This document shows, one piece after another, positions 9,086-53,493 of a DNA stretch of 64,000 nt. The notes below the pieces were generated by a model, which had not been told where the DNA came from, did not search any database, and was given only the letters and a program-made list of their open reading frames with translations. How positions within the stretch are numbered: the stretch's first letter is position 1; the number at the start of each line of letters is the position of its first letter. The translations under genes were made by a program, and so were the position numbers. The stretch comes from an uncultured Chlamydiae bacterium (GTDB lineage Bacteria; Chlamydiota; Chlamydiia; Chlamydiales; JAJFMA01). The stretch is taken from NCBI GenBank assembly GCA_963713615.1, contig CAVQMM010000001.1, positions 1,440,001 to 1,504,000 on the forward strand, in the 5' to 3' direction.

Positions 9086-9198
9086 TGCTAAGGGTCGGAC
9101 TTGACTTATTTGACTTCTCGGTCGAAATTCTGCTGGATTTCTTACTGAAAGTCTCTCGTGCGATAAACAAGTCAACTATTCACGTCTGACGCCTAGCA
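9086..9198 (-). repeat. REP-A doublet (about 110-bp REPIN/MITE-like element)
   Basis: Inverted ends GCTAAGGGTCGGACTTGAC...CACGTCTGACGCCTAGC; reverse complement aligns with 14529-14629, 30864-30964 and 43022-43130. Confidence 0.85.
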
Positions 9199-9205
9199 TT
9201 CTCTT

Positions 9206-10009
9206 CTACCTAAGTACCGCATGACCATAAAGGTCTAGCCGGAAACGTTTAGGAGATTTAGGATCTCGACGTTCTTCGGGAATTTCACATATCGCAATAA
9301 GAGGATTAAGATTCATAGAGACGGCGGCCATTAATGACTCTTCAATAAAATGAAGCAACATGGGCGTAGCTTGTTTAAGATACTCAAAAATGTGAGTTTT
9401 ATCTTTAAAACAAGGCCTTCTCAAAATTAAATAGCCTTTATGCTTTTCAATGCTATAATTTAATAGAAACACCTTTGAGTAATGTCCGTGCTCATCTTCA
9501 TTCCTACGGCCGACCAATTCATCAGCAAAGGGTTGGTAATGCTCTAATATTTTCAATATGAGAAATTCTTCCCCTGGTGATCCCGTTAGCTTTTTCTTCA
9601 GTTTTTCGCTGATATCTTTAAATTTTGGATCGTTAAATCCTTCGTCGAAAATGATTGCAAGAGCACAGGCAAATTTCCTTAACGCACTTTTTCCAAATTT
9701 CAAAAACGATCTTGTGTTCTCTATACTAATCACAGACTCAATCGAATCTGGTCTAGTTGTTGATTTGGCGCTTTCTAAGTTTTTCTCTATTTTTTTTATT
9801 TCTTGGATTACAGGCTTGGCTTGTTTTTCTGCTTCAATAAGATCTGTAGCAATATCGAAGCATAAGTCCTTTAGATTTGTTTTTTTTTCTTTCGACAATT
9901 CACTGTGGTCTAATAAATCTGAAATCCCACATGCAATTCTTGCCATGACTGGATGGCTTGTTCCGACGTCCATGATTTTTGTGGAATAAAAGGGTGACTG
10001 GTTTTCCAT
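9206..10009 (-). CDS. Hypothetical protein
   Basis: 267-aa ORF, no recognised motif. Confidence 0.65.
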   Translation of the reverse strand: MENQSPFYSTKIMDVGTSHPVMARIACGISDLLDHSELSKEKKTNLKDLCFDIATDLIEAEKQAKPVIQEIKKIEKNLESAKSTTRPDSIESVISIENTRSFLKFGKSALRKFACALAIIFDEGFNDPKFKDISEKLKKKLTGSPGEEFLILKILEHYQPFADELVGRRNEDEHGHYSKVFLLNYSIEKHKGYLILRRPCFKDKTHIFEYLKQATPMLLHFIEESLMAAVSMNLNPLIAICEIPEERRDPKSPKRFRLDLYGHAVLR

Positions 10010-10497
10010 GTTGATTACCGTCTCGTCTAGATTTAATCATTTTTCCTTATAAGATAACGATTTCAAGCTTTCCAATCTGTTCTCCATGAGCTAAAGAAGC
10101 CGTTGCATATAGTGGTCTCGAATCTATTTTTTGAAAAACAGAGTAGTTTTGCGCGAAAAAACGGATTCCATATAGAGAATGTAAATGTGATTCGAGAAAG
10201 CGGTGCATACTCTTTAATGTTCTTCCGTCACCACTTTTTGCCTCGATTTGCATGATGCACATGATGCACACGAAGCGTTCTCTCGTCAATTTGAAAAGGT
10301 CGCGATTGGAATCAATAATCCCTGTCGACAGGGAGAGGGCGGTCCAGTCCAGATATTGGCGGTGCAATGACGGTGCAACGCGGTGCAATTCGAGTCAGTA
10401 CGAACCAATAGAATCCAGTAGACTGAAAGGGTACAAGCTGCTTATAGTGTTGCTGATAGCGGTTGGATGATGTTTGGTCGTAGGGTGTTCCTCCGCC

Positions 10498-10539
10498 CTC
10501 ATAATCCGTTGGTCGCAGGTTCAAGTCCTGCTTGCCCCA
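10498..10539 (+). other. att site: 3' fragment of tRNA-Ile2(CAT)
   Basis: CTCATAATCCGTTGGTCGCAGGTTCAAGTCCTGCTTGCCCCA contains anticodon loop, T arm and acceptor 3' strand but no 5' half; identical to 29929-29970. Confidence 0.88.
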
Positions 10540-10703
10540 CTTATTAAATTCCCATCATGAGAAATACCAGAACCTGGTTGTTGTGACCCACCAATTTTGG
10601 TTAAAACGGCGATTTCGCCGCCGTGGACCACTAGTGGACCAAATGATCACAGCCGATCATTTACCCTTATATGTGGGGATTCTACTTTCACAATCCAACT
10701 TTG

Positions 10704-11000
10704 CTATGGCAATAAAAGCTCAAGATCAAGCCCCTTCACGGCAAGATCATTTCCAAGTGGCTGGAAGATATCCTGGAGGCTGTCAGTAACCAAGGACTTG
10801 ATGTCCCCGTCATTGTAACTAAAAGGATCTTGAAGCAAACGATAGGACAGATCAAGCGCTACGTACAATTTAGACACTTGGTGGCCCTCTTGTATCTGAC
10901 GATCGCTGGCCCCTTGAAGTTGCTCAGCCGTTTCTTGCATAGTGTTGCGCACCCAATCCCTTTGGATAGCGTTCATTGTTAATTGGCATCTTTCAGACAA
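10704..11000 (-). CDS. Hypothetical protein, possibly 5'-truncated by REP-A
   Basis: 98-aa ORF starting just inside the REP junction at about 11027. Confidence 0.35.
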   Translation of the reverse strand: MSERCQLTMNAIQRDWVRNTMQETAEQLQGASDRQIQEGHQVSKLYVALDLSYRLLQDPFSYNDGDIKSLVTDSLQDIFQPLGNDLAVKGLDLELLLP

Positions 11001-11484
11001 GTGAGCTTCGTCGGTACACAGCCAGGGCTAGGGGTCAGACGTGGGCTGAAACGAATCGACTATTTACGACGAAAATCAGTATCGATTTGTCCTCCCAGAT
11101 TCTGAAGGCAAGTGACAGAAAACACTGAGGTCAAAATGCTGTCCTTTTTGTCCTTAAGGTCCTTTTCGTCCACTTCTGGGGTTCTTGTACGGCGACAGTG
11201 ATGATGGCACCTCGGCGACACGCAGTTGGCACCTTCCATCACCGCCCGGCGTCAGCGAGTTGGCACCTTCCATCACCGACTGACGACAACCTCCTGGCAC
11301 CTCCTCCATCACCGACCCGCGACACGCGGTTGGCACCTCCCATCACCGCCCGACGACAGTCGGTTGGCACCTAAAAACAGGCCAGAATCAACGGCCCAAT
11401 CCCTCAAATCTTTCAGTCCTTTCTTGGGAGCTTGCAAGAGAGCATTTAGAATGCTGACGTCCCCAAACTTAAGCGAGAGTTAGG

Positions 11485-12981
11485 ATGTCAAATAGAATTA
11501 CGAAAGAACAATTGAGGTTGTATATGCAAATTAGAAACGGTGGCAGCATGCAGGCCACTGCCGCTGCCAAAGCGGGTATTAGTACGCGAAGCGCTAAGCG
11601 CTTCGAGAAAGGCACTCATATCAAGGAGTATCGCTCCAAATCTGGATCTTCATCAGACCCCTTCGCGAAAGTCTGGAGGACCGAGTTCGTTCCCCTGTTG
11701 GAAAGAGATCCGTTCCTAACGCCCATTACCTTAATGCGGGATCTCCAGGAACGCTATCCACAGGAATATCCCGACAGCCTACTTAGAACCCTACAAAGAA
11801 GGGTTCGGCAATGGAAAGCACTCCATGGAAGGGAGAAGGAACGGATCTTTCGGCAAAACCACCCTCCCGGTTTTCAGGGCATTTCTGACTTTACCAACTG
11901 CGATGAACTGCATGTAACAATAGAGGGTACTTCGCTTCCTCATTTGCTGTATCATTTCAGGGTTCCATTCAGCGGCTGGGCATATGCCTTTGTCATTCTG
12001 GGAGGAGAGTCCCATGTAGCTCTCTCTGCAGGTTTTCAAAATGCGTTATGGGAGCTAGGTGGGGTACCTGAAACCCATCGTACCGATAGTCTTTCAGCGG
12101 CATATAAAAATCTAAATGAATCAGCAAGAGAGGACCTTACAAACGCGTACAATGAAATGTGCGCACACTATGATGTAAAGCCCACGCGAAACAATAAAGG
12201 AGTAAAGCATGAAAATGGCAGTATTGAAAGTTCGCACAGACATCTTAAAAATAAAATCGATCAAAAGCTGCGCCTGAGGGGTTCTAGAGACTTTTCCTCA
12301 CTGCAAGAGTATCGAAACTTTGTCGATGAAATTGTTAAAAGTGACAATTCGCGACGTCAGGCTGAAGTAGCTGAAGAACGAAAGCACCTAAAGCCTCTCC
12401 CAAAACATAAGGTAGGCAGTCACGATATAGAAAACGTCGGTGTTCCTACCACGGGCATCATAACCGTACGACAGGCATATTATGCAGTGCCTTCGCGCTT
12501 GATAGGTCATACGTTAACGGTACACGTTCATGACGACCGATTAGAGTGTTTTCATGCAGCCTCTCATATCATTACTTTTCCGCGATTACGTTGGAGCAAG
12601 ACGGGTCCTCGCCCAAGAAACATCGACTATCGCCATGTCATTCCTGAGCTTGTCCGCAAGCCTCAAGCGTTTCGACACTACATCTTTAGAGATGATTTAT
12701 TTCCCAGCGATGAATTTCGCCAGGCTTGGGTGTTACTGGATGCGCGGCTTGATGAGCGTATGGCATGTAAGGAAATGGTGAGGATCTTAAAGCTGGCTGC
12801 AGACGGTCACCAGCAACAAATTGCAGCCGAGCTTCGAAAGGCACTAAACGAGCAACGCATACCAAGCTTTGAAGAGCTACAGCAACACTTTAAGGAAGCG
12901 AAGCACGTTGTCCCTCTGGTAGAGATTGAACAACACGATCTTGGCTCATACGACGAGCTGTTAAAGCACGCCACATTATAA
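11485..12981 (+). CDS. istA: IS21 transposase
   Basis: RTLQRR, SDFT, HRTDSLSAA, HENGSIESSH, YAVPSRLIG motifs. Confidence 0.95.
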   Translation: MSNRITKEQLRLYMQIRNGGSMQATAAAKAGISTRSAKRFEKGTHIKEYRSKSGSSSDPFAKVWRTEFVPLLERDPFLTPITLMRDLQERYPQEYPDSLLRTLQRRVRQWKALHGREKERIFRQNHPPGFQGISDFTNCDELHVTIEGTSLPHLLYHFRVPFSGWAYAFVILGGESHVALSAGFQNALWELGGVPETHRTDSLSAAYKNLNESAREDLTNAYNEMCAHYDVKPTRNNKGVKHENGSIESSHRHLKNKIDQKLRLRGSRDFSSLQEYRNFVDEIVKSDNSRRQAEVAEERKHLKPLPKHKVGSHDIENVGVPTTGIITVRQAYYAVPSRLIGHTLTVHVHDDRLECFHAASHIITFPRLRWSKTGPRPRNIDYRHVIPELVRKPQAFRHYIFRDDLFPSDEFRQAWVLLDARLDERMACKEMVRILKLAADGHQQQIAAELRKALNEQRIPSFEELQQHFKEAKHVVPLVEIEQHDLGSYDELLKHATL

Positions 12982-12997
12982 ATTTAGGAGAAGATTC

Positions 12998-13822
12998 ATG
13001 GTTACAAAAGAAGAAGCAGTACTACCGATACTACTCAAGCAGCTTCGCCTGCCAACAATGGCCGCTTTGTGGGAAGAAATGAGTCATCAAGCGGACCTTG
13101 AAGGGTGGGGAAGCGCCAAATGCCTGAAAGTCTTGTGTGAACACGAATTAACAGGAAGAACGGATCGTCGTATGATCAGGCACCTGAAGGAATCCTGCCT
13201 GCCCCTAGGTAAAACACTTACAGACTTCGACTTCAAAGTGACATCGCTCAATAAGACGTTGATTTGTACATTAGCCTCAGGTGGGAACTGGCTACGCGAG
13301 GGCAGAAACATTCTGATTTTTGGCCCCTCAGGAGTTGGTAAAACACATCTGGCAGCTGCAATTGGAGCGGGACTCTTAGAGCACAAGTTCCGTGTTTTGT
13401 TCATGCGTACCACCGAGCTCATTCAAAGGCTTCAAGCCTCAAAACAGGCCCTGACGCTACCGACAACGCTAGCAAAGCTGGATAAATATGATTGTTTGAT
13501 TTTAGACGATTTTGGCTATGCCAACAAGGATCTCATGGAAACAAATGTTCTCTTTGAGCTGATCTCAGAGCGATATGAGCGAAAGAGCCTGATCATAACA
13601 TGTAATCAGCCATTCAGTGAATGGACCAACATATTTCAAGATAAAGCTATGGCGGTGGCCGCAATAGACAGGCTGGTACATGACGCTCAAATTATCCAGA
13701 TCAACGGCGAAAGTTATCGCAGGAACAGCTTGTCAGCTAAAGCAAGAGCCAGTGTGACCGACCAGGATCGGGCGAAAACATTGAGTACTTGCATGAATCA
13801 AGAAATACAAGATTCGAGGTAA
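12998..13822 (+). CDS. istB: IS21 helper ATPase
   Basis: GPSGVGKTHLA, LILDDFGY, IDRLVH, GESYR motifs. Confidence 0.95.
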   Translation: MVTKEEAVLPILLKQLRLPTMAALWEEMSHQADLEGWGSAKCLKVLCEHELTGRTDRRMIRHLKESCLPLGKTLTDFDFKVTSLNKTLICTLASGGNWLREGRNILIFGPSGVGKTHLAAAIGAGLLEHKFRVLFMRTTELIQRLQASKQALTLPTTLAKLDKYDCLILDDFGYANKDLMETNVLFELISERYERKSLIITCNQPFSEWTNIFQDKAMAVAAIDRLVHDAQIIQINGESYRRNSLSAKARASVTDQDRAKTLSTCMNQEIQDSR

Positions 13823-13824
13823 AC

Positions 13825-14157
13825 ATGAAACATCATTCAGAAATACTCCTCAGTAGGGCTTTGGTTGAGGATTTACGAAATGCGGTGGCTGAGCTTGAGC
13901 GTAGAGCCGATAGCTCAATAGAAAACGCCCTAAGTGGAGACAGGACTTATGTGGCCCCATCTTTAGAGGTGCGAGAAGGGATTTTTCAGCTATTGGCCCT
14001 AGTAGCTGGCTTGGAGGAAGATCTACGTAGACGTTTTAGAGAACTTGTTGCAGAATATCTGGAACAGATCTATGCCTTTCATGCAAAATTGGAGGAAGAC
14101 TTGGAGGCTCTGGAGGGTAGCACTAGAAAGACTATCGGAGACGATCCAGTGATCTGA
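13825..14157 (+). CDS. Small helical passenger protein inside IS21
   Basis: ORF with GAGG RBS immediately after istB and inside the right TIR boundary. Confidence 0.6.
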   Translation: MKHHSEILLSRALVEDLRNAVAELERRADSSIENALSGDRTYVAPSLEVREGIFQLLALVAGLEEDLRRRFRELVAEYLEQIYAFHAKLEEDLEALEGSTRKTIGDDPVI

Positions 14158-14528
14158 GAAGAAGTTAGAACAGATGGTCCATACTCGCCCTGCGGGTATG
14201 GACCGGGCTGGAAGGACTTCAGACGAGAAGGATCTGGGCCCGGGTGATTCTGGCCTGTTTTTAGGTGCCAACCGACTGTCGTCGGGCGGTGATGGGAGGT
14301 GCCAACCGCGTGTCGCGGGTCGGTGATGGAGGAGGTGCCAGGAGGTTGTCGTCAGTCGGTGATGGAAGGTGCCAACTCGCTGACGCCGGGCGGTGATGGA
14401 AGGTGCCAACTGCGTGTCGCCGAGGTGCCATCATCGCTGTCGCCGTACAGGTTCTAAAGATGAGCCAAGAAAGTGCGGAAATTCTAGAGAGAAAATTCAT
14501 TGTTTTTAGGACGATTCGTTTCAGCCCA

Positions 14529-14629
14529 GGTCAGACGTGACTTGTTGACTTGTTCATGGTACGAGAGATTTTGGGTGAGAAATCCAGCAGAACTTTGGAC
14601 GAAAAGTCAATAAGTCACGTTTGACCCCT
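14529..14629 (+). repeat. REP-A doublet, right part (left part at 11027-11041)
   Basis: GGTCAGACGTGACTTGTTGACTT...AAGTCAATAAGTCACGTTTGACCCCT. Confidence 0.85.
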
Positions 14630-14837
14630 CGTATCGCAGCTCCCGCCTCTTTATAGGTACAGGAAAATTAATGGCTTGAGAAGCATCGATTCTGCTGGGA
14701 TGTACTATTTTATGCCAGTTTTTTCCAGAAGCCAATAGACAGGAATGCATAAGCAGCCTATAGTATCGCCAAAAACGGTTCTATCGTGTGGATTGTGAAT
14801 ATTCCTTACTACCTTCACATCGAATTTTAGGGTTCTC

Positions 14838-18100: not shown

Positions 18101-18116
18101 GGCTAGGGGTCAGACG
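18101..18116 (+). repeat. REP-A left end (IS target)
   Basis: GGCTAGGGGTCAGACG directly followed by the IS terminus TGGGGTGAAACGAA. Confidence 0.8.
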
Positions 18117-19912
18117 TGGGGTGAAACGAACCACCAGTTTTCGAGAAAAATCAGGCCTATTTTTACCCCCTAATTCTGGTACCAGACCTTATGGCAGCTC
18201 CCAATTAGCAATTGTTCAATTTCCCTTGTTGAAATCTAAAAAGTTGATTATCTTGAGTTGATTTTTTAAAAATATCCCACGCCCATTGCAATTACAGGGA
18301 CAACATGAACGAAAAAACCAACAAGTCCAGCATCAACAAAGAAGCGCGTATGTTACGCAGACAAAACAAACGAATCGAGGAGAGCCGCTCCTTAATCAAA
18401 GCCAAAAATCACGAGAAAGGAAAAATCATCAAGGCACACGAGGATCGCCAAACGGAGTTAGCGCAAAATCGCGATGAATGGAAGGCGAAGTGTAAGGAAC
18501 AGGAAAGGCAATGTGCTGAGGCAGAGAAAAATTACAAGCACGTAGCGGGTCTACTTAATATAAAAGAGGAGCAGCTAAAGGAAATACTAAGGGAATTTGA
18601 AAAGTTAAAAAAAAAGATCTCCCGAAGAAACGATAAAGTTGGACTCGCTGTGCAGTCGGCTTCGATGTTGGTATCAACGCTCTGTTATCCTACTGTGCGT
18701 TCGTTTATTTGTAATAGGTGCATCTCCATTACGAACCACCGCTAACAGTTTAAAAGTCTCATTTGAGACCCTTCCTGAGCTGAAGGGGTATCGAGCGCCA
18801 TCATTTATGACGATTAAACGTTGGGCGCAACAGGTCGGTTATTATAAGCTGAAGCTCCCTAGAGTTACTGCAAACGATTGGATGGTGATCATTGACGCAT
18901 CCATTCAAATGGGTGAGAAAAAGTGCGTAGTGGTCTTGGGGTGTGGTGGGACCAACCTACCCAGGGACCGTGCGTTGACCCTTGAAGATTTAGAAATTTT
19001 GTCCATGGTCATTGTGTCGAACTTAAATGGGGAAGTCGTCGCTAAGCATTAGCCGTAGGAAAAATAATTGCTATCTGCAGCGATCGTGGATCGGAAATCC
19101 TTCGTGGTGTCAGACATTTTCAGAGCACCAATCCTGAGACGCGGCACATTGGCGATAATGCGCATCGCGTATCAAATCTACTTGAGGCTACCTTAGAGAA
19201 GGCCACACGCTGGAAAGAATTTCGCGAGCAAGTTACCCTAGCTAGGAGAAAAATGCAAAATTCCTTAATCCCCGGTGCGCTTCCGCCGAGCCCGCGAGCA
19301 AAAGCTCGCTACATGAACGTGGATTCTCTAATAAAGTGGGCTGCAGACATGTTGGTTTTGCTTGATTATGGAGTCTCGAATCCGGGTCTTGATATCGATG
19401 ACCTCCGAAAATATTTAGGTTAGCTTCCGTCCTATCGCGAAGACGTTGAATATTGGAATCGACTCATTTCTATCGGATTAGCAGCGCGTTACATTGTTAG
19501 GATAGAGGGTATTCACCAGAATGTAGCGGATTCCTTTGAACAAGCAATCTCTTCTATTGAACTCGGTAGGAGAGAACTGAAATTTTCCGATCAATTGACC
19601 ATATTTTTATTGGATCAGTCGAAGGGGATGAAACTGGGAGAGTGTTTTATAGGCTCAACAGAGGCATTAGAATCTCTTTTTGGAAAAATCAAGTACATGG
19701 AACGTGAACAAAGGGCATTTGGTTTTACTTCGCTTTTACTAGCAGCCATAGCGGCTGTTGGCCCAATCGATGAAGCAACAATCGCAAATGCATTGGCCTT
19801 AGTGAAGCTGTCAGACATAGATCAGTGGGCGGCAGAAGAAATCGGCCAGAGCGTCCAGTCTCAAAGACGGCAAATCAAGAAAATCGTAGCGAGGCTGACT
19901 TGCCCGCCTTAA
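18117..19912 (+). mobile_element. Degenerate IS with Mutator-like DDE transposase pseudogene (18305-19912); right end lost
   Basis: Left end TGGGGTGAAACGAACC; fragments carry IIDASIQ.G..K, SDRGSE, DNAH and STEALESLFGK; A9 tract at 18607-18615 and internal stops. Confidence 0.7.
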
Positions 19913-24065: not shown

Positions 24066-24180
24066 TTCGCACTCCTCTGCTATTGCAGTTTGAATTTAAT
24101 AACCGCATTTTACGGCGACCTATCGTCATGAAAAAATGGCGCCGGTGGAAAAACCGTAAAATGCGTTGAATAGCAGTGAG

Positions 24181-43489: not shown

Positions 43490-43520
43490 GGCTAGGGTCA
43501 GATATGACTTATTGACTTTT
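43490..43520 (+). repeat. REP-A half element
   Basis: GGCTAGGGTCAGATATGACTTATTGACTT. Confidence 0.75.
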
Positions 43521-43526
43521 GTGCAC

Positions 43527-43708
43527 AGCATCTGGCTGACGCCAATGCCTATCGCCGGGATAGACGTAAAGATGCTTTACTCCAACAGAATGGTTACATG
43601 GTTCTACGATTCTTAAGCGAAGATGTGGGTAAGCATCTTGATGATGTTTTGGATTCAATTCTTCGCGCCTTGACACATCAAAGTGCACTTCTAGAAGGCA
43701 AAACTTGA
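43527..43708 (+). pseudogene. DUF559/Vsr-like endonuclease C-terminal fragment
   Basis: QHLADANAYRRDRRKDALLQQNGYMVLRFLSEDV. Confidence 0.65.
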
Positions 43709-43786
43709 ATCTATTTGTGAGATAAAATATGGGAAGGTATTATATGAAAGTTCAATTATTGAAGATACGGTTAAGGATTTATTGGT

Positions 43787-44030
43787 ATGTTTAAGTCTGC
43801 CTTTGCTTATGATGAAGAGGTCATTTTCTACTTTGATCTTTTGGGAAATAAATATGTTGCACAAGGAGGAAGTCTTGCCTGGCGTTTAAATAACCCTGGA
43901 TTGGTCAGAAGTCGTTCTCATTTTGCTAGAAAAAACGGATCTATTGGATCTTATACGGGATTTGCTATTTTTTCTTCTCCTCAACAGGGAAGGAAGGCTC
44001 TAATAGACTTGGTAAGAACGAAAAAATATT
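43787..44030 (+). pseudogene. RxNNPG-motif protein truncated by ISL3
   Basis: GGSLAWRLNNPG...GSIG...FAIFSS...G..AL; paralogue of 14838. Confidence 0.65.
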
Positions 44031-45414
44031 GGTTCTTGGGAAGAATTGGGGGCGCAGAGCGCAAAGATCAGCTAATACATTAATTTTTTAGGCAAAAAAA
44101 GAGAGGACATAGAAAATCCTATGTTTCGACACAATAGGAGGTTCTCTATGTCCATCTCAAAGGTCTTTTATGCCTTGATCGAAGATAAAAGTGTAGTTTT
44201 TCAAAGCGCAGAATTTCAGTCGGACTATACCATCTTTCACGGTCATCTGCGGCAAAGTGGCAAAAAATGCCCATGTTGTAAGGCTTCCAACGTGCGAATC
44301 AAGGAGACAAAGGAAAGAACTTTTCGAATGCTCAACCTTGGCCAAAAACGGACCTACCTTAAAATGGATTCCCACAAGATCTGGTGCCAGCAATGTAACG
44401 CGATTGCCTGGCTTCAACACCCTTTTACCTCTGGAAAGCTACCGATGACCAAGTCTTTCATCAATTACATCCTTCAGTTAACTGCAATGACAACCCTTCT
44501 TTGCGTAGCACTATTCCTAGGACTGCAATGGAAGACCGTAAAGAACCTAGACAAAGCCAATCTTAGAAAACGTGCAAAGCAATTTTCATTCCGAAAGCTT
44601 CGTTACATTAGCATCGACGAGATAGCAATAAGGAAGGGTCATAAATACATGACAATTTTCACAGACATCGCGACAGGCCAAATTATCCATGCTGTCGCAG
44701 GGAGGGACGAAGAATCACTTAGACCTTTTCTAAAGCTTCTTTCAAAGAAGGCCAAGCGACTTAGGGGCATTGGTATCGACATGAGTGCAGCCTATTCGAG
44801 TTCGATTCAAAAACACCTTCCTCTGGTGCCGATCATTTATGATCGCTTTCATGTTACCAAACTTCTCAATGATACGATCGACAAAATCAGGCGCGCTGAG
44901 TACGCCAAGCACATGAACACGGGTGTAGCGGTAATGAAAGGTCAGCGGTTTCTACTTCTGCGAAATTTTGTGGATCTTGATGATGGACAGAAAAGTAGCC
45001 TTGAAAGACTCCTAGAAGTTAATCACTCATTAGCAGTAGCTCACAGTATGAAAGAACAATTCAGGTTATTTTGGGAGCTTGAATCAAGACAGGAAGGAGC
45101 TAAATTTCTTGGATGGTGGATCATTCAGGCAATTGAGTCTGGGATTGAGCAGTTAGCGAGAACTGCTCGTACACTACTCCATCATTACATGGGGCTCTTA
45201 AGCTACTTCGAACACCGGATAGACAATGGAAAGGCGGAAGGAATCAATAACAAGATAAAGGTTTTGAAGAGACAGGCATATGGCTTTCGAGACCAAGAAT
45301 ACTTTAAGCTAAGGCTATACAACCTCCACAGGAAGGACTATGAATTGGTTGGTTAGACTGGAAGATACTGGGAAAGTGTCTCTGGAGGGCCGCCCCCAAT
45401 TCTTCCCAAGAACC
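44031..45414 (+). mobile_element. ISL3-family element
   Basis: TIRs GGTTCTTGGGAAGAATTGGGGGCG and CGCCCCCAATTCTTCCCAAGAACC. Confidence 0.92.
44148..45356 (+). CDS. ISL3 transposase
   Basis: CPCC zinc finger, IDE...RKGH.Y, IDM, DRFHV, EGINNKIK..KR.AYGFR motifs. Confidence 0.95.
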   Translation: MSISKVFYALIEDKSVVFQSAEFQSDYTIFHGHLRQSGKKCPCCKASNVRIKETKERTFRMLNLGQKRTYLKMDSHKIWCQQCNAIAWLQHPFTSGKLPMTKSFINYILQLTAMTTLLCVALFLGLQWKTVKNLDKANLRKRAKQFSFRKLRYISIDEIAIRKGHKYMTIFTDIATGQIIHAVAGRDEESLRPFLKLLSKKAKRLRGIGIDMSAAYSSSIQKHLPLVPIIYDRFHVTKLLNDTIDKIRRAEYAKHMNTGVAVMKGQRFLLLRNFVDLDDGQKSSLERLLEVNHSLAVAHSMKEQFRLFWELESRQEGAKFLGWWIIQAIESGIEQLARTARTLLHHYMGLLSYFEHRIDNGKAEGINNKIKVLKRQAYGFRDQEYFKLRLYNLHRKDYELVG

Positions 45415-45435
45415 ATATTTTCTCGAGGTATTCAC

Positions 45436-46143
45436 ATGTTTTTAAACAAATCTATATGTATTTTTTGCTGTAGTCTTCTTTGTCTGTGCACTAATGGTCT
45501 TTCTACTGAACCCCATGCTAAATATCCAGAAATTGAATTCAAATATGACTGGCGTGGTTATATCATGGATTTTTTTGGTAGGTGGTATTTTGATGCACCA
45601 ATAACGGAACATCTTAAAAATCAGTTGACTAACCAGCTTCCTGAGTTGATCACTGCTTGGGAAATAAATGCTCCAATACTTTTTGGAGAAGTATTTGCCA
45701 CCTTTAATCGAGGAATTGAAGCTGAAACTAGAATTGGAGTTATTAACTTGAGTCATGGAAGCTCTTACGGTAGTCATCGATTTTTAATTTTTGGATTACG
45801 TTGGCTTCTGGATTCAGAGTGGCCCTATTCGGTGAGTAGAGAAGATGCTTTTTCGGCCCTTGTTTTTCATGAATTATTGCATGTTTGGGTCGATGAAAAT
45901 GTCAATAAGGACCTTTCGTCTATGCTAGCGAAATACAGTAATGAAGAGTTTGATGTTCTTGATCATTTACATTTAATGGCTATCCAAAAAATGGTGTATA
46001 CAAAGATAAATCGTCCGGATGTACTCGAGTATATTGGAGAGTCCTATGCATCATATCAAGGTCCTCTCTATCGTCGTGCCTGGGAAATCGTTAATGATAT
46101 TGAAGGACATGAAGCGTTACTTCAAGATATTGTGATTAAATGA
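45436..46143 (+). CDS. Exported hypothetical protein with HExxH motif
   Basis: Hydrophobic N terminus; VFHELLH. Confidence 0.6.
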   Translation: MFLNKSICIFCCSLLCLCTNGLSTEPHAKYPEIEFKYDWRGYIMDFFGRWYFDAPITEHLKNQLTNQLPELITAWEINAPILFGEVFATFNRGIEAETRIGVINLSHGSSYGSHRFLIFGLRWLLDSEWPYSVSREDAFSALVFHELLHVWVDENVNKDLSSMLAKYSNEEFDVLDHLHLMAIQKMVYTKINRPDVLEYIGESYASYQGPLYRRAWEIVNDIEGHEALLQDIVIK

Positions 46144-46173
46144 TGACCCAAGCTCAGATACGACAAATGGAAT

Positions 46174-47208
46174 CTATTCCCGTACAATTCGATCCGTTAG
46201 GGATGGAATTAAATACTGTATGTCTGCCTGTATGAGAAAATCTTCGTTGCCTAGATATGATGGCAGCCCTAAATCAACTGAAATTATTTTTCCATTTGGA
46301 TTATTATTTTTATACCAACCTAAAAATCCCCTATCGTCATAACTTAACCCAATGCAAATAATATAGTCTATATTACTTAATTGAATCCCCCCTGCTTCCC
46401 TTAGCTCTTTTGCATTAATACGATAGGGCAAAATTCCACTATATTCATGAAGGCAATCTAAGTTTTCAGTCACTATCTTCGTGTTTTTGAATTTTGCTAA
46501 TTTCGTCAGAGCTTTATGTGCTTGTGTTAGGGGGCTAAAGAAACAAGCGTTGTGAAATGTGGAAATTTTTTTTGAAAATTCTTCCGGATTTCGAAAGGCA
46601 TTTTCCAATGAAATGGCAAATTCTTCTCCCTCTTTTAAGCCAAGCAAATCATTTAGTTGAGTCATTGAGGGCACGCCAGAGGCCACAGAAATTCCTGCTC
46701 CTGTATAAAAAAGAATATTTTTATCGGCAATGATTGATAAGATGCCGTCTTCAGTGATCTTTTGAGGTGTCGACTGCTCAAATATACGCCTTTTATCCAC
46801 CAAATAAGATGCGTTATCTGAACCGTGCTCCTTATTCTGTTTTCGAGGTAAATTTATAACTGATGGTTCGTTATTCTTCCATTCATAATAAAAAATATAG
46901 TACTCTTTTCCATTACTATCAACAAATTTACTTTTATCAATAAATAACTTTTTGACTGATTCATCATAGCAGATAGGAATGTCGGCAAATAAAACTTCAA
47001 AATAGACTTCATCCTTTTTACTAATAAAGTGAAAGAAGGCATTTTCTCCGAACTGCCAACACATATCAAGAGATTTAGAGTCAAGTTGCTCGTGGATCTC
47101 ATTAGTGGAAATAACTTCGGGATTAGAGAAAAAGTCTGCTTCTCTTCCATAAGCATTGCACAGGTTAACTGAAACTATCGCGGATAATAGAATTTTGTTT
47201 AAGTACAT
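46174..47208 (-). CDS. Sir2-family domain protein with N-terminal extension
   Basis: YTGAGISVASGVP, T.AH.AL, VTENLD.LHE, ICIGLS motifs. Confidence 0.75.
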   Translation of the reverse strand: MYLNKILLSAIVSVNLCNAYGREADFFSNPEVISTNEIHEQLDSKSLDMCWQFGENAFFHFISKKDEVYFEVLFADIPICYDESVKKLFIDKSKFVDSNGKEYYIFYYEWKNNEPSVINLPRKQNKEHGSDNASYLVDKRRIFEQSTPQKITEDGILSIIADKNILFYTGAGISVASGVPSMTQLNDLLGLKEGEEFAISLENAFRNPEEFSKKISTFHNACFFSPLTQAHKALTKLAKFKNTKIVTENLDCLHEYSGILPYRINAKELREAGGIQLSNIDYIICIGLSYDDRGFLGWYKNNNPNGKIISVDLGLPSYLGNEDFLIQADIQYLIPSLTDRIVRE

Positions 47209-47349
47209 ATGCGTATACTCATTATTTTTGGGAGACAAGCTTAAAAAAAATAGCAGATCTGTCACCGCCTGTCAAATGGAAGGACTGTCAATTTTTCCGG
47301 AATTGTTTTTTGACAAAACGCACTCAAATCGAGCACATGCTCTATATGC

Positions 47350-47434
47350 GGTCAGACGTGACTTATTGACTTCTTGTCTGAAATTTTGGATCTCTCGTGC
47401 GCTAAACATCTATAAGTCACGTCTGACCCCTAGC
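47350..47434 (-). repeat. REP-A doublet (shorter spacer)
   Basis: GGTCAGACGTGACTTAT...ATAAGTCACGTCTGACCCCTAGC. Confidence 0.85.
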
Positions 47435-47435
47435 A

Positions 47436-48610
47436 CTAGCATGAATGAGAGCGAAGATTGCGAAAGTACTCAGCCGCGCTTTCAGATTCTTGAACTGCAA
47501 TTTTTGCTCTGGCAAACATTTCTCTTTCAAATTTCTCTGTCAATCTTGGCCAGTCGATAGGCTTTGATGAGGAGGCTAATAGAATCGTTAGTAATCTGGC
47601 ATCTTCAAGCACATTATTTCCACCTAGCCCTCGTTGTGTGGGCATGGCATGGGCTGAATCTCCCACGAGAGTAACTCTTCCTGTTGGAACCATGGGAAAT
47701 TGTGGAGAGTCAGAAAACTGGTAGTGCGTATGAGCCAAGGCGCCATGATCGCTTCTGCCGGAGTATCGTACACGAGCTTTTTCAAATTCTCATGCCAAGG
47801 TTCATTTTTCATCAACTGCTTACAGTGGTCCAATATTCGCGTGCGACATTGCAATCCTTCATCAAACTGATACCAAGGGGCACTTCAGTCTTCTATTTCT
47901 TCTGAAAATGCCCAAAAAACCGTAGGACTTCTATCGGCCCGTTCTGAAAAGCATACTCCCATGTAATGTGAATTAGGCCCTAGAAAATGAACCAATCCTG
48001 TTTTGTTTAGTGGAAGAAGCGTGTTCCATTCGGGTGTTCGCTCAATCTGTCCTCCTAGGGTGGCGCGAGTACCCTCAATCACATTTGGAATCGATCCAAG
48101 GCCATGTTGGTATACTGATGGTAAGAGTTCTCTTACAGTCGATGCTCCTCCATCGCACCCAACAAGGAGATCCCCAGTGGCATACGAGCCATCTTCAAAA
48201 TGAGCAGTCACTTGGTCGCCATTGTCTTCGAACATGACAAGACACTTGTTCCATTCAATATTGATCCCCTCCTGCAAAAGGCTTCTCAGTTCTGAGCGAA
48301 GGAACGGGACAGCAGCATCTTGCCCTGCTGGAACACTGAAAAAAGGTTCCATTTTTTCATTCGCACAGGTAAAGCCATCACCCACATCAGTAACCTTAGC
48401 CATGGATACCCGGTTCATTTTTTCAGGCGTCAATAGTGCAGCTAGTGCGCTCATTCCCAACGAACGAATTGAAATCCGATATCCTTGAGGTCTGCTTGTA
48501 GGACTTTCATCTCTTTCAAAAACTGTGACATGGAATCCAGCCTTGGCAAGTCCCTGCGCCAAAGCCAATCCACCAAGACCTGCTCCAATTATTAATATTT
48601 TATTTCCCAT
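47436..48610 (-). pseudogene. FAD-dependent monooxygenase, frameshifted
   Basis: IIGAGLGGL, LVGCDG..S.VR, VTLVGDSAHAM....G.GGN..LEDA spread over three ORFs. Confidence 0.85.
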
Positions 48611-49131
48611 TTCTTAGCATTCTCACTACTTAACCATTTAATTTCGGATTCAAGATGAGCAATTCCATATCTCAAAGCTTTGAGGCGAATCATTTTAAGG
48701 GGCGAATCGTTTATACCCTCCAGCCTCTCCTCGATTTGTTTGTATTCTTCGTGTATCTTCTCAACTTTTTCTAATCTTTCCTGAAATAGCCGAATCATCT
48801 CATTTCGATCTGTTACGAAAAAGAGCTTGAGAAGAAACTCATTGCGTGGGGTTTCCTCCCCTGTCGGACTTTCGAACCAAGCCTTAAATTCCATCCGTCC
48901 CATTTCTGTAATAGAAAAGACCTCTTTCTTTTTCTTTCCCACATAGACGATCTCAGAAAGCACCTTTCCTTCCTTTGCCAAAACTTTCAACATCGGATAA
49001 ATTGTCGAATCGGATTCCCTCCAGAAATATACTGTCGATCTTCCCATAAGAGACTTGATCTCATATCCGGTGGTGGGTCCCTCAAGGAGAACCCCCAAAA
49101 TAGCGTATCTTGTTTTATTGACTAATCTCAT
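48592..49131 (-). CDS. PadR-family transcriptional regulator
   Basis: AILG.L..GP.TGYEIK, IYP.L..L, F.ITE.G, FLLKLFF motifs. Confidence 0.9.
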   Translation of the reverse strand: MRLVNKTRYAILGVLLEGPTTGYEIKSLMGRSTVYFWRESDSTIYPMLKVLAKEGKVLSEIVYVGKKKKEVFSITEMGRMEFKAWFESPTGEETPRNEFLLKLFFVTDRNEMIRLFQERLEKVEKIHEEYKQIEERLEGINDSPLKMIRLKALRYGIAHLESEIKWLSSENAKKWEIKY

Positions 49132-49188
49132 AAAAATACCCAGTTACTGGGTATTATGGCATGGCGGGTGATTTTCAGGCAATGCAAA

Positions 49189-49220
49189 GGCTAGGGTCAG
49201 ACGTGGGCTGAAACGAATCG
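49189..49220 (+). repeat. REP-A left end plus orphan MITE TIR
   Basis: GGCTAGGGTCAGACG followed by TGGGCTGAAACGAATCG. Confidence 0.85.
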
Positions 49221-49222
49221 CC

Positions 49223-49562
49223 CTACACTTTTTGATTTAATTCCAATAACCTTGGCTGAAAAGTCATGTTATAAATGTTGATTTGCTCAGGAAACCTATG
49301 TTGTTGGATCCATTCTTTAAAAAATTTATCGGCAACCTGTTTATAGAATTCAGAGATCTGGTAGTCTTTATGGCCTTTGCAGAGATCCGGATTTCCCAGG
49401 CAGAAGGAACCTCCACCCTTAATTTCTTTCCATGTCTTCTTTCCTTTGCCCTTAGACTCTTGTTCCTCCATTACCAGTCGAATACCGCAATCCTGTTTGG
49501 TTTCTTCTTCTTGCAATCCTTTCTCTAAACCAATCTCTTGATAGTGGACACAATATTTACGT
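49223..49562 (-). pseudogene. Diverged copy of the C-terminal repeat domain of 49870-51540
   Basis: Shares HKDYQISEFYKQVADKFFKEWIQQH...NMTFQP.LLEL.QKV; 5' end cut at REP-B. Confidence 0.8.
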
Positions 49563-49668
49563 GGGCTGGGGGTCAGGCTCTATGACACTTGGGCTGGGGG
49601 TCATGGGGGTCAGGCCTGACACTATGACACTTGGGCTGGGGGTCAGGCCTGACACTATGACACTTGTG
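49563..49668 (+). repeat. REP-B stuttered array
   Basis: Four GGGGGTCA-initiated units of variable length. Confidence 0.88.
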
Positions 49669-49869: not shown

Positions 49870-51540
49870 CTACACTTTTTGATCTAATTCCAATAGCTTT
49901 GGCTGAAAAGTCATGTTATAGATGCGCATTTGTACAGGAAACTTATGTTGTTGGATCCATTCTTTGAAAAATTTATCCGCAACTTGTTTATAGAATTCAG
50001 AGATCTGGTAGTCCTTATGGCTTTTGCAGATATCCGGATTTCCCAGCCTGAAGGAACCTGCTCCACCCTTAATCTCCTTCCATGTCCTCCGCTTGCCCTT
50101 AACCTCTTGCTCCTCCATTACCAGCTGAATGCCGCGATCCTGTTTGGAGCTTCTCTCTTCTTCTAAACCAATGTCTTTGTAGTGGATACGATATTTACGT
50201 GTACCGTCATCGTCATTATATGCTTTAAGATTTTCATCATAGTAACGCGTACCCGGTAGTTGAGGCGTATCCCGTGCGTTTTCTGGTACAGGCGTGTTTT
50301 GATCTAGGCGGATAGGATTGAAATCTAAACCGAATGCTTTAATTTCTTGGGGAAATGATTGATGTTCAATTTGTTCCTTTAAAAACCGATCGGTTACTTG
50401 GATGTAAAATTCTGTTGCCTGTCCCTTGTTGTTATAGCGTCCGGAAGGATGAGGATCTCCAAGGTAGAAGCAACCTGAGCCTTCAATTTTTTTCCACATT
50501 TCTCCATTGCAAGAACGTTCTTTAATATCTAAACGTTCTTCCATCTCTATTCGAATACCACGCTCATTTTGATGATATTCGCTTTCTTTTCCTTCTTGTG
50601 TTGTTCGAAACTTTCCTTTCATGAAAAGTTCTGTGTAGCGGACACGGTACTTACGCTTTCCATCATCACCATTAAAGCCTTCGAGATTTTCATCATAGAA
50701 ACGATAGTCTGACACCGGGGGCTTTCCACCCTCTTGTTCAATCAGTTCGTGGGATGAAAACTGTCGTAATGGTTGCGGAGAGCCTTTTGGTGGGGTTGCG
50801 GGTGTTGCAGATTGTCGCTTAAAAATAGAAGAATGTTTCATCAGGTTTAAAGAAACCACCAATTTGTCGATTACTTTTTTACCGTCGGCGATGAGGTGAC
50901 TGACTTCTTTTACCTTTGGTTTGCCTAAGTGCATCAAGACTACTTTGTTATGTTTTGTGAAGTAGCATCCTCCTGAGCTTCCTGGAGAGGTATCGCTAAA
51001 CACCATTTGAAATGACGGGTTGGAACTGTTCTCTTTTCCAGCTTTGCTTAAGGAAAATACGGGTTGCCCATCTCTTTGATGAACCAACATGAGTTCTTCA
51101 TCTGGGCGAGCATCTCGAAGTGGCGGAATCGTGACCCAATGGTCAGCGTGATGGCCATCTTGAGGCTTGAGTTGAGCAATGCAATAATCCGTACTTTTTT
51201 CGTAATTCATGAATTCCGCTATTTCAAAACTAAGAGGGGCGTTGCCATCCACGTGAAAGACTACCGACAAATCTCGGGGATGCAAATGCTTCTTCGCAAG
51301 ATGTAAAGGGATGAGCAAACGATCAGGACCGAGCAAAATACCCGATCCTAAAGGTGCGCCGCCGGAAGTGTTAATCTGAGCTCGACAGCGATTGGCATAT
51401 TCAATTGTTTCTTTCCAATGTGGCCATTGGTGAAGAGCCTCATGGTAATCCAGCATCGATGATTTTTCGGAGATTGAAGACTCTTGAGAGACCGTCCAGC
51501 CAGTCAAAGAAGTGGGTGGAAGAGTATTGAGGATTACCAT
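49870..51540 (-). CDS. Trypsin-like serine protease domain with a tandemly repeated C-terminal domain
   Basis: GSGILL...H, DYCI, DTSPGSSGG; YDENL..N.DDG.RKYR repeated twice. Confidence 0.65.
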   Translation of the reverse strand: MVILNTLPPTSLTGWTVSQESSISEKSSMLDYHEALHQWPHWKETIEYANRCRAQINTSGGAPLGSGILLGPDRLLIPLHLAKKHLHPRDLSVVFHVDGNAPLSFEIAEFMNYEKSTDYCIAQLKPQDGHHADHWVTIPPLRDARPDEELMLVHQRDGQPVFSLSKAGKENSSNPSFQMVFSDTSPGSSGGCYFTKHNKVVLMHLGKPKVKEVSHLIADGKKVIDKLVVSLNLMKHSSIFKRQSATPATPPKGSPQPLRQFSSHELIEQEGGKPPVSDYRFYDENLEGFNGDDGKRKYRVRYTELFMKGKFRTTQEGKESEYHQNERGIRIEMEERLDIKERSCNGEMWKKIEGSGCFYLGDPHPSGRYNNKGQATEFYIQVTDRFLKEQIEHQSFPQEIKAFGLDFNPIRLDQNTPVPENARDTPQLPGTRYYDENLKAYNDDDGTRKYRIHYKDIGLEEERSSKQDRGIQLVMEEQEVKGKRRTWKEIKGGAGSFRLGNPDICKSHKDYQISEFYKQVADKFFKEWIQQHKFPVQMRIYNMTFQPKLLELDQKV

Positions 51541-51719: not shown

Positions 51720-52185
51720 GGCTGGGGGTCGGCTGGGGGTCAGGCCTGATACTAGGGGCTGGGGGTCAGGCTGGGGGTCAGGCCTGATACTATGACACTT
51801 GTGTATATAAAATAAGGGGCTGGCGTAGCACAAATAAATTTATGGAAACGGCGCTTGATCTAACCTTCGATGTTATGGAAATGCCAAGCCCACTAGCTAT
51901 TGGCCATGGCCAAAATGAACTCAGCCTTAAGGCCATGCACCTCGCTTCGTAATGCACTAGATTCTTGCATTCTGCTTTCTAACCGTGCTGCGGCCTTGCT
52001 CATACCACTGGCTTCTCGGTACGTCAAGTGTCATAGTGTCAGGCCTGACCCCACCCTCGTCACGTCACGTCAAGTGTCATAGTGTCAGGCCTGACCCCAC
52101 CATAGTGTCAGGCCTGACCCCACCATGACCCCACCATAAGTGTCATAGTGTCAGGCCTGACCCCACCACAGGCCTGACCCCACCA
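51720..52185 (-). mobile_element. Internally deleted RAYT derivative between stuttered inverted REP-B arrays
   Basis: RAYT downstream flank and last codons joined at 52018 to GTACGTCAAGTG (matches the right REP at 26804 onward); one substitution seen versus the parent. Confidence 0.88.
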
Positions 52186-52233
52186 TTGAAATTTCTTGGA
52201 CTCCCTATCGTCCTCAAGGTGGCTTTCCTGAGT

Positions 52234-52252
52234 GCTAGGGGTCAGACGTAGG
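52234..52252 (+). repeat. REP-A variant half (inverted partner at 53418-53436)
   Basis: GCTAGGGGTCAGACGTAGG versus CCTACATCTGACCACTAGC. Confidence 0.7.
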
Positions 52253-52267
52253 GTGTTGATTCAAGTG

Positions 52268-52365
52268 AGGCTTCCAACTCTTGTCGATAGCGGCTTCGGT
52301 TGGGCCGTAGAGTCGGAGGACGACGAAGAACCCTTTGCCAGGCGGCACGGTAGCGAGCCAGTTAT
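52268..52365 (-). pseudogene. DUF1214-like C-terminal fragment
   Basis: Hand translation NWLATVPPGKGFFVVLRLYGPTEAAIDKSWKP. Confidence 0.55.
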
Positions 52366-52513
52366 AGCCGATGAGGATGAAAATACTCCAATAACAAAAT
52401 GCTGGAATAAAATGGCATAAAGCAGCAGAATTATTGTTCTTTTAAACCCTCAATTTCATTGGGTCCAAAGAGAAGCTTTTTTACACAAGAGAAAGGCATG
52501 ATAGATTCTCAAT

Positions 52514-53386
52514 TTGAAACAAAATAAAATGTTTTCTTCAAGTTATTGTCTCACCAACGAACAAATCATTCATTTTCAGCATAAAGGTTTTCTCTTATTG
52601 CCTGATTTTGTTTCAGAACAACTTTGCGAGCAACTTAAAACACGATCTTTACATTTAGTGGAAAAGTTTCAAATACCGGATATTTCAAAAGAAATTGCTG
52701 AGCAAAAAGAAATATTTTCATGGGAAAATTATTACTATAAAAACAATACCAAGGAGTGTTATTTTTTTGAGAAAGAAGCCATGCTGCCTGATGGTTCCTT
52801 AGATAGAGACAAAACGGATGCTATTCAAAAAATTAGCTACGCTTTACATTCTCTTGATCCTATCTTTAATGCATTCTCCTATTCATCTAAAATCGGAAGT
52901 TTGGTCGCTGATTTGGGCCTAAAGAAACCCGCTATCCTTCAATCAATGTATTTGTTTAAACAGCCCAAAATTGGCAGTCCTGTTTTTTGTCATCAGGATA
53001 GCTCTTTTTTATACACCGAACCCGATACATTGCTTGGACTTTGGCTTGCCATAGACGATGCTGTAATTGAGAATGGATGTCTATGGGTTATACCGTCTGC
53101 TCACAGAGAAGCTTTAAAATTTCGTACACTGTTTGATAAGAATGGGAAACAAAACTACACGATCTTAGATGAAAGACCTTGGTCCATGGAAAATATGATT
53201 CCTCTTGAAGTGAAGAAAGGCTCACTAGTTATCTTACATGGAAGAGCGCCTCATATGAGTAAGGCTAACCTTTCGAATAAATCACGCCACGCCTATGCTA
53301 TGCATCTTATGTGCACAGAAAGTTTTTATCCAGAAGATAACTGGCTACAGCCAAAACCGTGTTATGACGCAACTTTTACGCACTAG
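52514..53386 (+). CDS. Phytanoyl-CoA dioxygenase (PhyH) family 2OG-Fe(II) enzyme
   Basis: QSMYLFKQP.IG, HQD, W.AIDDA..ENGCL.VIP, H.S..N.S..SR motifs. Confidence 0.9.
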   Translation: MKQNKMFSSSYCLTNEQIIHFQHKGFLLLPDFVSEQLCEQLKTRSLHLVEKFQIPDISKEIAEQKEIFSWENYYYKNNTKECYFFEKEAMLPDGSLDRDKTDAIQKISYALHSLDPIFNAFSYSSKIGSLVADLGLKKPAILQSMYLFKQPKIGSPVFCHQDSSFLYTEPDTLLGLWLAIDDAVIENGCLWVIPSAHREALKFRTLFDKNGKQNYTILDERPWSMENMIPLEVKKGSLVILHGRAPHMSKANLSNKSRHAYAMHLMCTESFYPEDNWLQPKPCYDATFTH

Positions 53387-53493
53387 ACTCGTAAAAACTG
53401 GATTAAAATTTTGCAAACCTACATCTGACCACTAGCATTTCTGGATTTGAAGGTTTACAGAGTAAGATTATCTTACTAAGGCGGGGTTCCTCA

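Follow-up and report, generated by a model that had tools for sequence, protein, structure and literature searches.

The stretch analysed here, which we call the window, comprises 64,000 nucleotides (C1:1440001-1504000) of the genome of an uncultured Chlamydiae bacterium (3.97 Mb in three contigs, C1 being CAVQMM010000001.1). It is placed inside an array of integrative elements because 3' copies of a tRNA-Met recur in and around it: the tRNA-Met lies at C1:1435752, and 42-bp, att-like copies of its 3' end recur at 29929-29970 (plus strand) and 10498-10539 of the window as well as at C1:1584341 and 1625737. This array hosts many short inverted repeats, which an earlier note on this DNA had taken for repetitive extragenic palindromes (REPs) with a GCT[AG] leader and had linked to the truncation of seven genes. 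They are not REPs of the GTAG type. Rather, they are the GGGGTCAG terminal inverted repeats (TIRs) of two TIRYT/TIRtron elements and the ends of miniature inverted-repeat transposable elements (MITEs) of ~100 bp, and several genes of the window are broken precisely at their outer tips.

TIRtron-B (25625-26863, minus strand) holds an intact TIRYT gene of the Y1-HUH type (25781-26812) between GGGGTCAGGCCTGAC inverted repeats at 25625(+) and 26863(-), each expanded into a nested array. Its counterpart TIRYT-A lies beyond the window at C1:1580887-1581999, with TIRs at C1:1580887(+) and 1581999(-), and is 42-44% identical to TIRYT-B; the prediction of the earlier note that the repeat class it named REP-A (here TIR-A) would have a cognate transposase elsewhere in the genome is thus borne out. 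GGGGWSAS inverted repeats flank both genes, the left TIR-A end having three G only. Both proteins score above the cut-off for PF01797 (Y1_Tnp), and H85-x-H87 (here H85-I-H87), FQ and Y144 are invariant across seven TIRYT sequences. The tail resembles Bac_DnaA_C below the Pfam cut-off (E 1.9e-5), with TIGR00362 at E 1.4e-9 for TIRYT-A, and NCBIfam REP_Tyr_transpos gives 70.7 and 76.4 bits, under its 80-bit cut-off. The predicted fold of TIRYT-B (mean pLDDT 64.5) best matches TnpA-REP (4er8) and also IS608 TnpA.

The element family is already known: TIRYT/TIRtron (Di Nocera 2013, PMC3733652) corresponds to TnpA-Y1 subclass 2.1.2 (Quentin 2018, PMC6006769) and to RAYT group 1 (Bertels 2017, bioRxiv 119735), and TIRYT-A and TIRYT-B are a new pair of members. 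As far as the accessible text of these papers describes the published elements, those found here share with them the Y1-HUH core, the Bac_DnaA_C tail, GGGGWSAS inverted repeats at the gene ends, element-specific TIR families and TIRs occurring as singles, dimers and clusters elsewhere in the genome. Among the subclass 2.1.2 motifs NH[YF]H, FQ and Y[IV]HLNP (Table 1, PMC6006769), FQ and YIHLNP are matched exactly, whereas the HUH motif reads NHIH, a variant at the hydrophobic position. Subclass 2.1 is given as the second largest Y1-HUH group, found in 14.9% of species (PMC6006769). With the query used, no TIRYT match was obtained in the same-genus genomes G001-G003.

A genome profile scan yields 50 TIR-A-like sites, with at most one in the reversed-genome control at the nearest threshold, and most of these sites pair inversely ~100-110 bp apart, i.e. 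as MITEs, of which there are about 20. The window contains 22 of the 52 TIR cores of C1. The literal GCT[AG]GGGGTCAG motif is found at 13 places in the window (12 plus, 1 minus), at 24 on C1 (14 plus, 10 minus) and at none in 100 dinucleotide shuffles of the window, and the folding of MITEs and TIR arrays is more stable than that of shuffled sequences (z -2.5 to -4.8). The leader is not the fixed, shared sequence it had been thought to be: it reads GCTA, GCTG, GCTC, GTTC, GGT (at the right end of TIRtron-B) and others, differs among related elements and is not the GTAG tetranucleotide of GTAG-REPs. A literature search for the GCT[AG] motif itself returned, among the matches listed, unrelated primers only.

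An important question is whether the truncations really end at these repeats. Comparison with intact homologues (G098 being left out of some comparisons with relatives) places six of the seven at a TIR outer tip, 0-2 nt from the leader, or 5-9 nt in the case of the diverged toxin homologue. The P-type H+ ATPase gene (41771-43003, plus strand) is cut mid-gene at a TIR-A array, its identity to a full-length paralogue running up to the G at 43004 with which the leader starts; it covers positions 1-375 of the 755 of its NCBIfam model, and the C-terminal half is absent on the far side of the array and its ~110-bp MITE (43004-43134, right end degenerate). A conserved integrative-element gene, open reading frame (ORF) 24181 (24181-24726, minus strand), has lost ~60 N-terminal amino acids at the left TIR-B end (180 amino acids here, ~240 in homologues); intact alleles diverge past 24725 and the leader begins at 24727. 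Then follows a tandem partial copy of the left TIR-B array and the 3' part of the TIRYT gene (24727-25624, minus strand; period 861 nt), in which 24787-25624 duplicates 25648-26485 with one difference in 838 nt and which meets the TIR at 25625 with zero shared bases. On the other side of TIRtron-B the TIR ends at 26863 and a 5' remnant of a tyrosine integrase gene, ~56 codons long, begins at 26864 (26864-27033, minus strand).

The two remaining outer-tip joints involve a protease-repeat copy and a toxin leader. The former (49220-49564, minus strand) is a diverged copy (84%) of the repeat at the C-terminal end of the protease-like gene at 49870-51540; identity stops at 49563 and the leader of an orphan TIR-B array of four units (49565-49668, plus strand) starts at 49565. 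The latter (43397-43520, plus strand) belongs to a RelE/Gp49-like toxin-antitoxin toxin gene, whose leader is interrupted by the TIR-A end at 43491; 30 bp of TIR come next. Its homology to intact copies (74-82%) stops 5-9 nt ahead of 43491, and the left joint of TIRtron-A (C1:1580793-1580916) has the identical 124 bp. The seventh case departs from the pattern, since the C-terminal DUF559 fragment (43521-43708, plus strand) joins the inner side of this 30-bp TIR remnant at ~43520. Thus, the proposed coincidence of breakpoints with the GCT[AG] motif holds for TIR outer tips, whereas the literal motif is present at only three of the six outer joints.

Automated breakpoint calling that was blind to TIRs, compared with the 21 TIR termini of the window by a binomial test, listed 18 candidate mid-gene breaks, three within 16 nt of a terminus (p 9e-4) and five within 35 nt (p 5e-5); this list is noisy, as it missed three true joints, included artefacts and used a reference set partly fetched around TIRs. 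For the joints at 9087, 11027 and 18102 the relatives offered no usable alleles, and reads placed on 29500-49400 came from distant relatives only, with no informative joints. In the metagenome loci L063:253-765 and L073:885-1352, two further reading frames, those of a different Y1 transposase and of another phage-type integrase, likewise meet a TIR tip. The joints of the window could be errors of assembly at repeats: the source reads, and with them any spanning reads, were not found (0.23 of the words at most in a single run), and the window contains several frameshifts, some in homopolymers. We regard this as the least credible of the alternatives and as extremely improbable, as the joints fuse unique sequence to repeats of 30-110 bp, the same pattern of arrays and joints is present in many independent assemblies, and ordinary insertion sequence (IS) copies in this very assembly retain matched duplications.

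The nested arrays bear on how the joints are made. In every TIR array, each unit starts just outside GGGG and stops at a variable inner point, and the 861-nt partial duplication is the same pattern on a larger scale. A total of 170 array junctions were collected, from this genome and from 49 fetched loci. Of the 163 that allowed scoring, 119 have a leader shared between units that extends 4-5 nt outside GGGG, and the formula [end 1..x]+leader+end, in which x ranges from 7 to 53, accounts fully for 101. Microhomology of 1-8 nt is present at 53 of the 101 explained junctions, and none at the other 48. These 48 blunt junctions follow no dinucleotide rule on either side of the cut: C^T, on the target or outer side, occurs at two, C is the last kept base at four, and a peak of A^G stems from the single hot position x=7. 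The TIR-A leaders had pointed to cleavage at T^G, a rule that was discarded, and an IS91-like CAAG target was likewise dropped, CAAG preceding only three of the 12 listed plus-strand termini. Because leaders differ between elements and ends and the cut follows no dinucleotide rule, the GCT[AG] leader is most plausibly flanking DNA carried along with the end and not a signal.

Host processes could in principle produce such structures by slippage, template switching or break repair at hairpin ends, with TIRYT only spreading the elements or with ends being captured at existing breaks. The stable folding of MITEs and arrays and the 53 junctions with microhomology are in line with this, and IS capture at breaks without target duplication has been proposed (PMC11708052). 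Yet the restart is fixed 4-5 nt outside GGGG despite differing leaders, a polarity for which slippage offers no reason, and 48 of 101 junctions have zero shared bases; we therefore consider host processes an unlikely source of the joints.

What TIRtron-B displaced can be seen in relatives, where the pre-deletion alleles anticipated by the earlier note were indeed found. In nine of them the left flank (to 24723-24728) and the right flank (from 26864, or 26853 in one) are separated by extra DNA of 1,126-1,138 bp: 1,126 bp in 12 of 19 homologue pairs and 1,132-1,138 bp in six, one cross-copy pair having 8 kb (the 19 pairs include overlapping loci). This empty allele carries a 387-codon frame with an integrase-like LGH..T..Y motif, and the gap, which is free of TIRs where checked, holds most of the integrase and the start of ORF 24181. 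TIRtron-B thus replaced ~1,126 bp and removed most of the integrase. The uninterrupted left flank is also present in contigs of three unrelated sequencing runs; a scan of viral contigs gave no match to the empty allele.

Loss of flanking DNA is not confined to this copy. Of 21 paired elements genome-wide, 12 could be tested after four self-hits (C1:1035003, 1449087, 1470865 and 1607136) had been dropped and C1:3084291 had been scored from its non-self homologues; in 11 the flanks do not match and in one they are separated by a 53-nt gap. By contrast, 16 of 19 IS21, IS1634 and ISL3 copies, which served as DDE control in the same assembly, have a matched target duplication (of only 5 bp in one). 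The difference is significant (Fisher p 9e-5, or 9e-4 for the eight most robust, independent cases). No target duplication accompanies the TIR elements.

Genomes of another group show that joints also shift. In G305, the entire 178-bp spacer of the TIR-free genome G346 (flanks 89-90% identical) has given way to a MITE, and in the sister genome G345 (92%) the same MITE is present with different joints on both sides. Similarly, a TIRtron in G305 has removed the last codons, the stop codon and the spacer that G351 (66-72%) has. The left joint of this element in G345 is displaced outwards by ~1.28 kb, a loss that includes the inositol-monophosphatase gene; G346, too, lacks part of this gene and has no TIR there. 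Relatives of G304 gave no flank matches. Of 96 outer tips in the fetched loci, 12 follow a long ORF's stop codon at a distance of 0-6 nt, against a null of 0.8-1.0% from non-coding DNA of G000, and seven more lie inside such an ORF (counted on a stricter core, with a chance in-gene motif in L211 excluded).

Clean insertion followed by homologous recombination between two copies, which would delete or exchange the intervening DNA, could also lead to mismatched flanks. Potential partners exist (about 50 TIR-A-like ends, about 20 MITEs), three of the 19 DDE copies are without matched duplication as well, and the toxin-leader joint occurs at two loci. This route would, however, require recombination at almost all elements. 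It is unable to produce arrays whose 3' ends vary or an 861-nt partial duplication with a non-homologous joint, and the loss of a 178-bp spacer with shifted joints in a sister genome would call for paired insertions at distances below 200 bp, all of which makes it quite unlikely.

A further complication is that the TIRs are themselves targets. The TIR halves at 11027, 18102, 49190 and 52234 appear as lone ends, and each is continued by another element. At 11027-14632 a TIR-A MITE is split by a MITE of a TIR-targeting IS, with a 9-bp duplication of the TIR core, the inserted MITE in turn carrying an IS21; at 18102-19895 (plus strand) a TIR-A half leads into a frameshifted copy of the TIR-targeting IS itself, a DDE element of the IS256/Mutator-like type with its far end missing; and at 49190-49225 (plus strand) a TIR-A half, whose joint lies 58 nt upstream of padR, is followed by a short end of the same IS. 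The ends of this IS start with TGGG and follow the TIR core at 11042, 18117 and 49204, with a 9-bp duplication of the core. They adjoin TIR cores in five of eight fuzzy matches on C1, the other three looking like chance, and in nine of 11 distinct contexts of fetched loci (three from this genome). The copy at 18117-19895 corresponds to an intact 469-codon element of G302, which also sits within a TIR. The transposase has no Pfam or NCBIfam match; D103, D173 and E366 are invariant, and the predicted fold is like those of Hermes and ISCth4.

The search for this IS found 342 homologues. Close relatives insert at one TIR-core position (L085:3918-5324(-), L215, C1:164523 and 1505160), and distant ones are found at varied sites in G234 and in short G+C-rich repeats in G430, some of which resemble the ends of a second family. 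This second family, with ends starting TAGGGTGTTGATT, adjoins the TIR core in five of five matches (window 52249; C1:1605133, 1625821, 2369842 and 2413125); its copy at C1:1605133 is a ~150-bp MITE with a 9-bp duplication, and a transposase of the family was not found.

Adjacent deletions caused by these two IS families, with the TIRs serving as mere landing pads, might be held responsible for the gene breaks, and IS ends at 11042, 18117, 49204 and 52249 do account for four of the 'lone' ends. Such deletions should end at the IS terminus inside the TIR and not at its outer tip, and an IS end is present at none of the six confirmed joints, nor at the joints of G305 and G345; this explanation is therefore very unlikely.

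The same elements help to explain why lone ends seemed to lie mostly on the plus strand. The ends at 9087 (a degenerate TIR-A MITE, 9087-9197, by partner-end search), 30865 and 43023 have degenerate partners ~100-110 nt away, and the 'lone plus-strand ends' are largely an artefact because the strict motif misses such partners. Genome-wide, three of 16 candidate lone ends have degenerate partners, and the remaining 13 split 7 versus 6 by replication direction as judged from GC skew; within the window the count is five plus and no minus (p=0.06), and in G302 the TIR strands divide 63/56. A strand bias relative to replication was accordingly given up.

The cassette-like mosaic that had been envisaged for this region fares little better. 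In that reading a selected, strand-biased capture system would assemble and shuffle genes by TIR ends, and there are units that look the part: PhyH (52514-53386) lies between inverted TIR-A halves, each continued by an end of the second TIR-inserted element (52234-53436); the padR-monooxygenase segment is bounded on both sides by TIR tips; and MITE-plus-flank segments recur at distant loci, as illustrated by the MITE at 30865-30964, whose right flank is 75% like that of the MITE at 43023 while its left flank is unlike. But PhyH is the sole passenger gene between inverted TIR-A halves and its unit the sole cassette-like one, no second copy of this unit was seen, most joints destroy genes, and there is no strand bias outside the window. 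Moreover, the block 22640-27120 and several cargo blocks occur without TIRs in the integrative elements of relatives. A capture system is thus highly improbable, and the mosaic is mainly a tRNA-anchored integrative-element array damaged by TIR ends. Apart from the cognate transposase of TIR-A, what stands of the original proposal is that the joints are real joints of deletions and duplications, with a Y1 transposase as their likely agent.

Reading backwards from these end products, we think it probable that TIRYT cuts one strand 4-5 nt beyond each GGGGTCAG end and that it attaches the ends, one at a time, to free 3' ends, which would generate deletions, tandem duplications and nested arrays with one joint at the outer tip. 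TIRYT itself would make the joints by a chemistry that we borrow from TnpA-REP, for which a 5'-phosphotyrosine link resolvable by an arbitrary 3'-OH oligonucleotide in vitro has been described (PMC8266576) and a cleavage-primed model of tandem amplification of REP units has been put forward (PMC3333891). The cut would be set by distance and not by sequence, and the protein-linked tip would be captured by a 3'-OH, for which a nascent strand, a nick or a resected break are candidates. If this 3'-OH lay upstream, the DNA in between would be deleted; if it lay inside or beyond the element, a duplication would arise. The two TIR ends, on opposite strands, may act independently, and the rarity of matching flanks and the missing target duplication would therefore come from the independent joining of two ends. 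Repeated rounds under selection might finally ratchet a joint to the stop codon or the promoter of the next needed gene.

Several observations weigh against this interpretation. All the evidence consists of sequences in their end state. The inner-side joints at 43520 and 49668 and the internal deletion of a mini-TIRtron-B (51721-52184, which has kept both TIR arrays and the 3' tail of the gene) do not fit outer-tip joining and need another cause. Six mid-gene breaks (10256, 19896, 32100, 32444, 34137 and 40992) have no TIR nearby; because these stand beside the TIR-blind enrichment, TIR tips are an enriched and not the only class of joint, so that the enrichment expected by the earlier note holds with this qualification and that of a noisy list. 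As many as 62 of the 163 array junctions are not fully explained, 1-3 purines are unaccounted for at several joints (24726, 49564), to which homopolymer errors may contribute, and the array sample is dominated by G302, the richest material for counting junctions (119 TIR-B copies in large nested arrays, L202-L217), and contains inherited copies, which are not independent. The contrast with DDE elements is weakened because the DDE copies are younger: the TIR-A MITEs, being older and more diverged, had a longer time for flank loss by any route. In other genomes (G301-G305 and others) the flank test was informative for three of 39 elements, and a MITE between ftsW and murG in G303 is possibly a near-clean insertion, the spacing in relatives being too variable. 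The pile-up behind stop codons, finally, is 0/50 in this genome, is judged against a null taken from G000 and may arise in part because the leader itself can supply a stop.

A more speculative proposition, doubtful yet far from improbable, is that these elements represent a third mode of Y1-HUH movement, in which a symmetric element is cut by a ruler 4-5 nt outside its repeat and its ends are transferred independently to free 3' ends and almost never cleanly, each event replacing, deleting or duplicating host DNA. TIRYTs could then be a widespread gene-trimming agent with a ratchet towards stops and promoters, itself parasitized by the TIR-targeting IS256/Mutator-like element.

Such behaviour would set TIRYTs apart from several known systems. 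REPtrons, i.e. TnpA-REP of groups 2 and 3, have a related fold (4er8), tandem repeat amplification and a 5'-phosphotyrosine resolved by a 3'-OH; unlike them, TIRYT has no GTAG guide and no C|T cleavage signature, and its gene occurs here at unrelated loci beside broken genes, whereas the REPtron gene is described at a fixed locus (PMC3333891, PMC8266576). IS200/IS605 elements share the Y1-HUH fold and the absence of target duplication, but have hairpin ends that are not symmetric, select their target by a guide, and excise and insert precisely (PMC6006769). Adjacent deletion by DDE elements likewise leaves one joint at the element end and a variable one elsewhere, without target duplication and with both deletions and duplications (PMC11708052); for DDE elements, however, one-ended behaviour is the exception (16 of 19 copies here are clean), whereas for TIR elements it is apparently the rule, at both ends and with 4-5 nt of carried flank. 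The TnpA of IS200/IS605 is short (~150 amino acids), has a Y---Q motif and inserts 3' of a fixed tetra- or pentanucleotide; TIRYT proteins have ~290-320 amino acids, inverted ends, no fixed target and non-contiguous flanks. One-ended transposition is also known from IS91, and IS91/ISCR elements combine a transposase of the Y2 or large Y1 type with ori and ter ends that differ from each other and a fixed tetranucleotide as target. The TIR elements, by contrast, have symmetric ends, both of which form arrays, and CAAG before only the three termini mentioned above.

New with respect to known TIRYTs is the combination of no clean insertions, a carried 4-5-nt leader, one-ended deletions and duplications, and joint shifts between sister genomes. 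The accessible parts of the published TIRYT accounts give no junction analysis or mechanism (PMC3733652, PMC6006769, bioRxiv 119735), and in the literature searched, mainly openly accessible, we found no description of TIRYT junction behaviour. To this the locus adds the empty alleles described above, a control from within the genome, the offset of the leader and the shifts in sister genomes, and its joints predict the position and polarity of the cut, the absence of a target sequence and of target duplication, and deletions and duplications as products. If the proposed mechanism is right, TIRYT elements would be an unrecognized cause of truncated genes and lost spacers, having inactivated here the integrase of a widespread integrative element, and would possess a natural ligase-like activity on single strands to which arbitrary 3' ends are acceptable.

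As to the array itself, 22640-27120 and 29790-29970 form a tRNA-anchored integrative backbone that is conserved in many families of the order, with nucleotide identities of 70-95%, and is also present in cave, lake and peat sequencing runs. The cargo varies, and acetate kinase, phosphoketolase and H+ ATPase are found in G234 and G177. A TLC ATP/ADP translocase, detected by domain search, may point to an environmental chlamydia, and the first integrated unit carries a restriction-modification cluster (3632-8121) of a C5 methylase, an NgoFVII-like endonuclease, a Z1 protein and Vsr. GC skew over 1-64000 is +0.023 within a replichore of negative skew, consistent with foreign or inverted DNA. Frameshifts or insertions split glgC, phosphoketolase, FAD monooxygenase and MCRA (34293-35667, 37650-39966, 47436-48610 and 60465-61648), by decay or by long-read indel errors; next to the third of these, a TIR-A MITE (47343-47439) cuts with its outer end at 47439 into the stop codon of the FAD monooxygenase. 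A fused ORF at 39948-41774 joins a class I aldolase to a triosephosphate isomerase, with a break at 40992 relative to an aldolase-containing paralogue and no TIR near. A palindromic repeat of ~190-300 bp at 63420-64000 has hundreds of copies genome-wide, and TIR-A MITEs sit at the edge of such copies at C1:1.971 and 3.351 Mb. Finally, at L145 (G163) a short palindromic repeat of the GGGGTCAG type lies ~60 nt upstream of a hydrolase gene homologous to 53494-54969.

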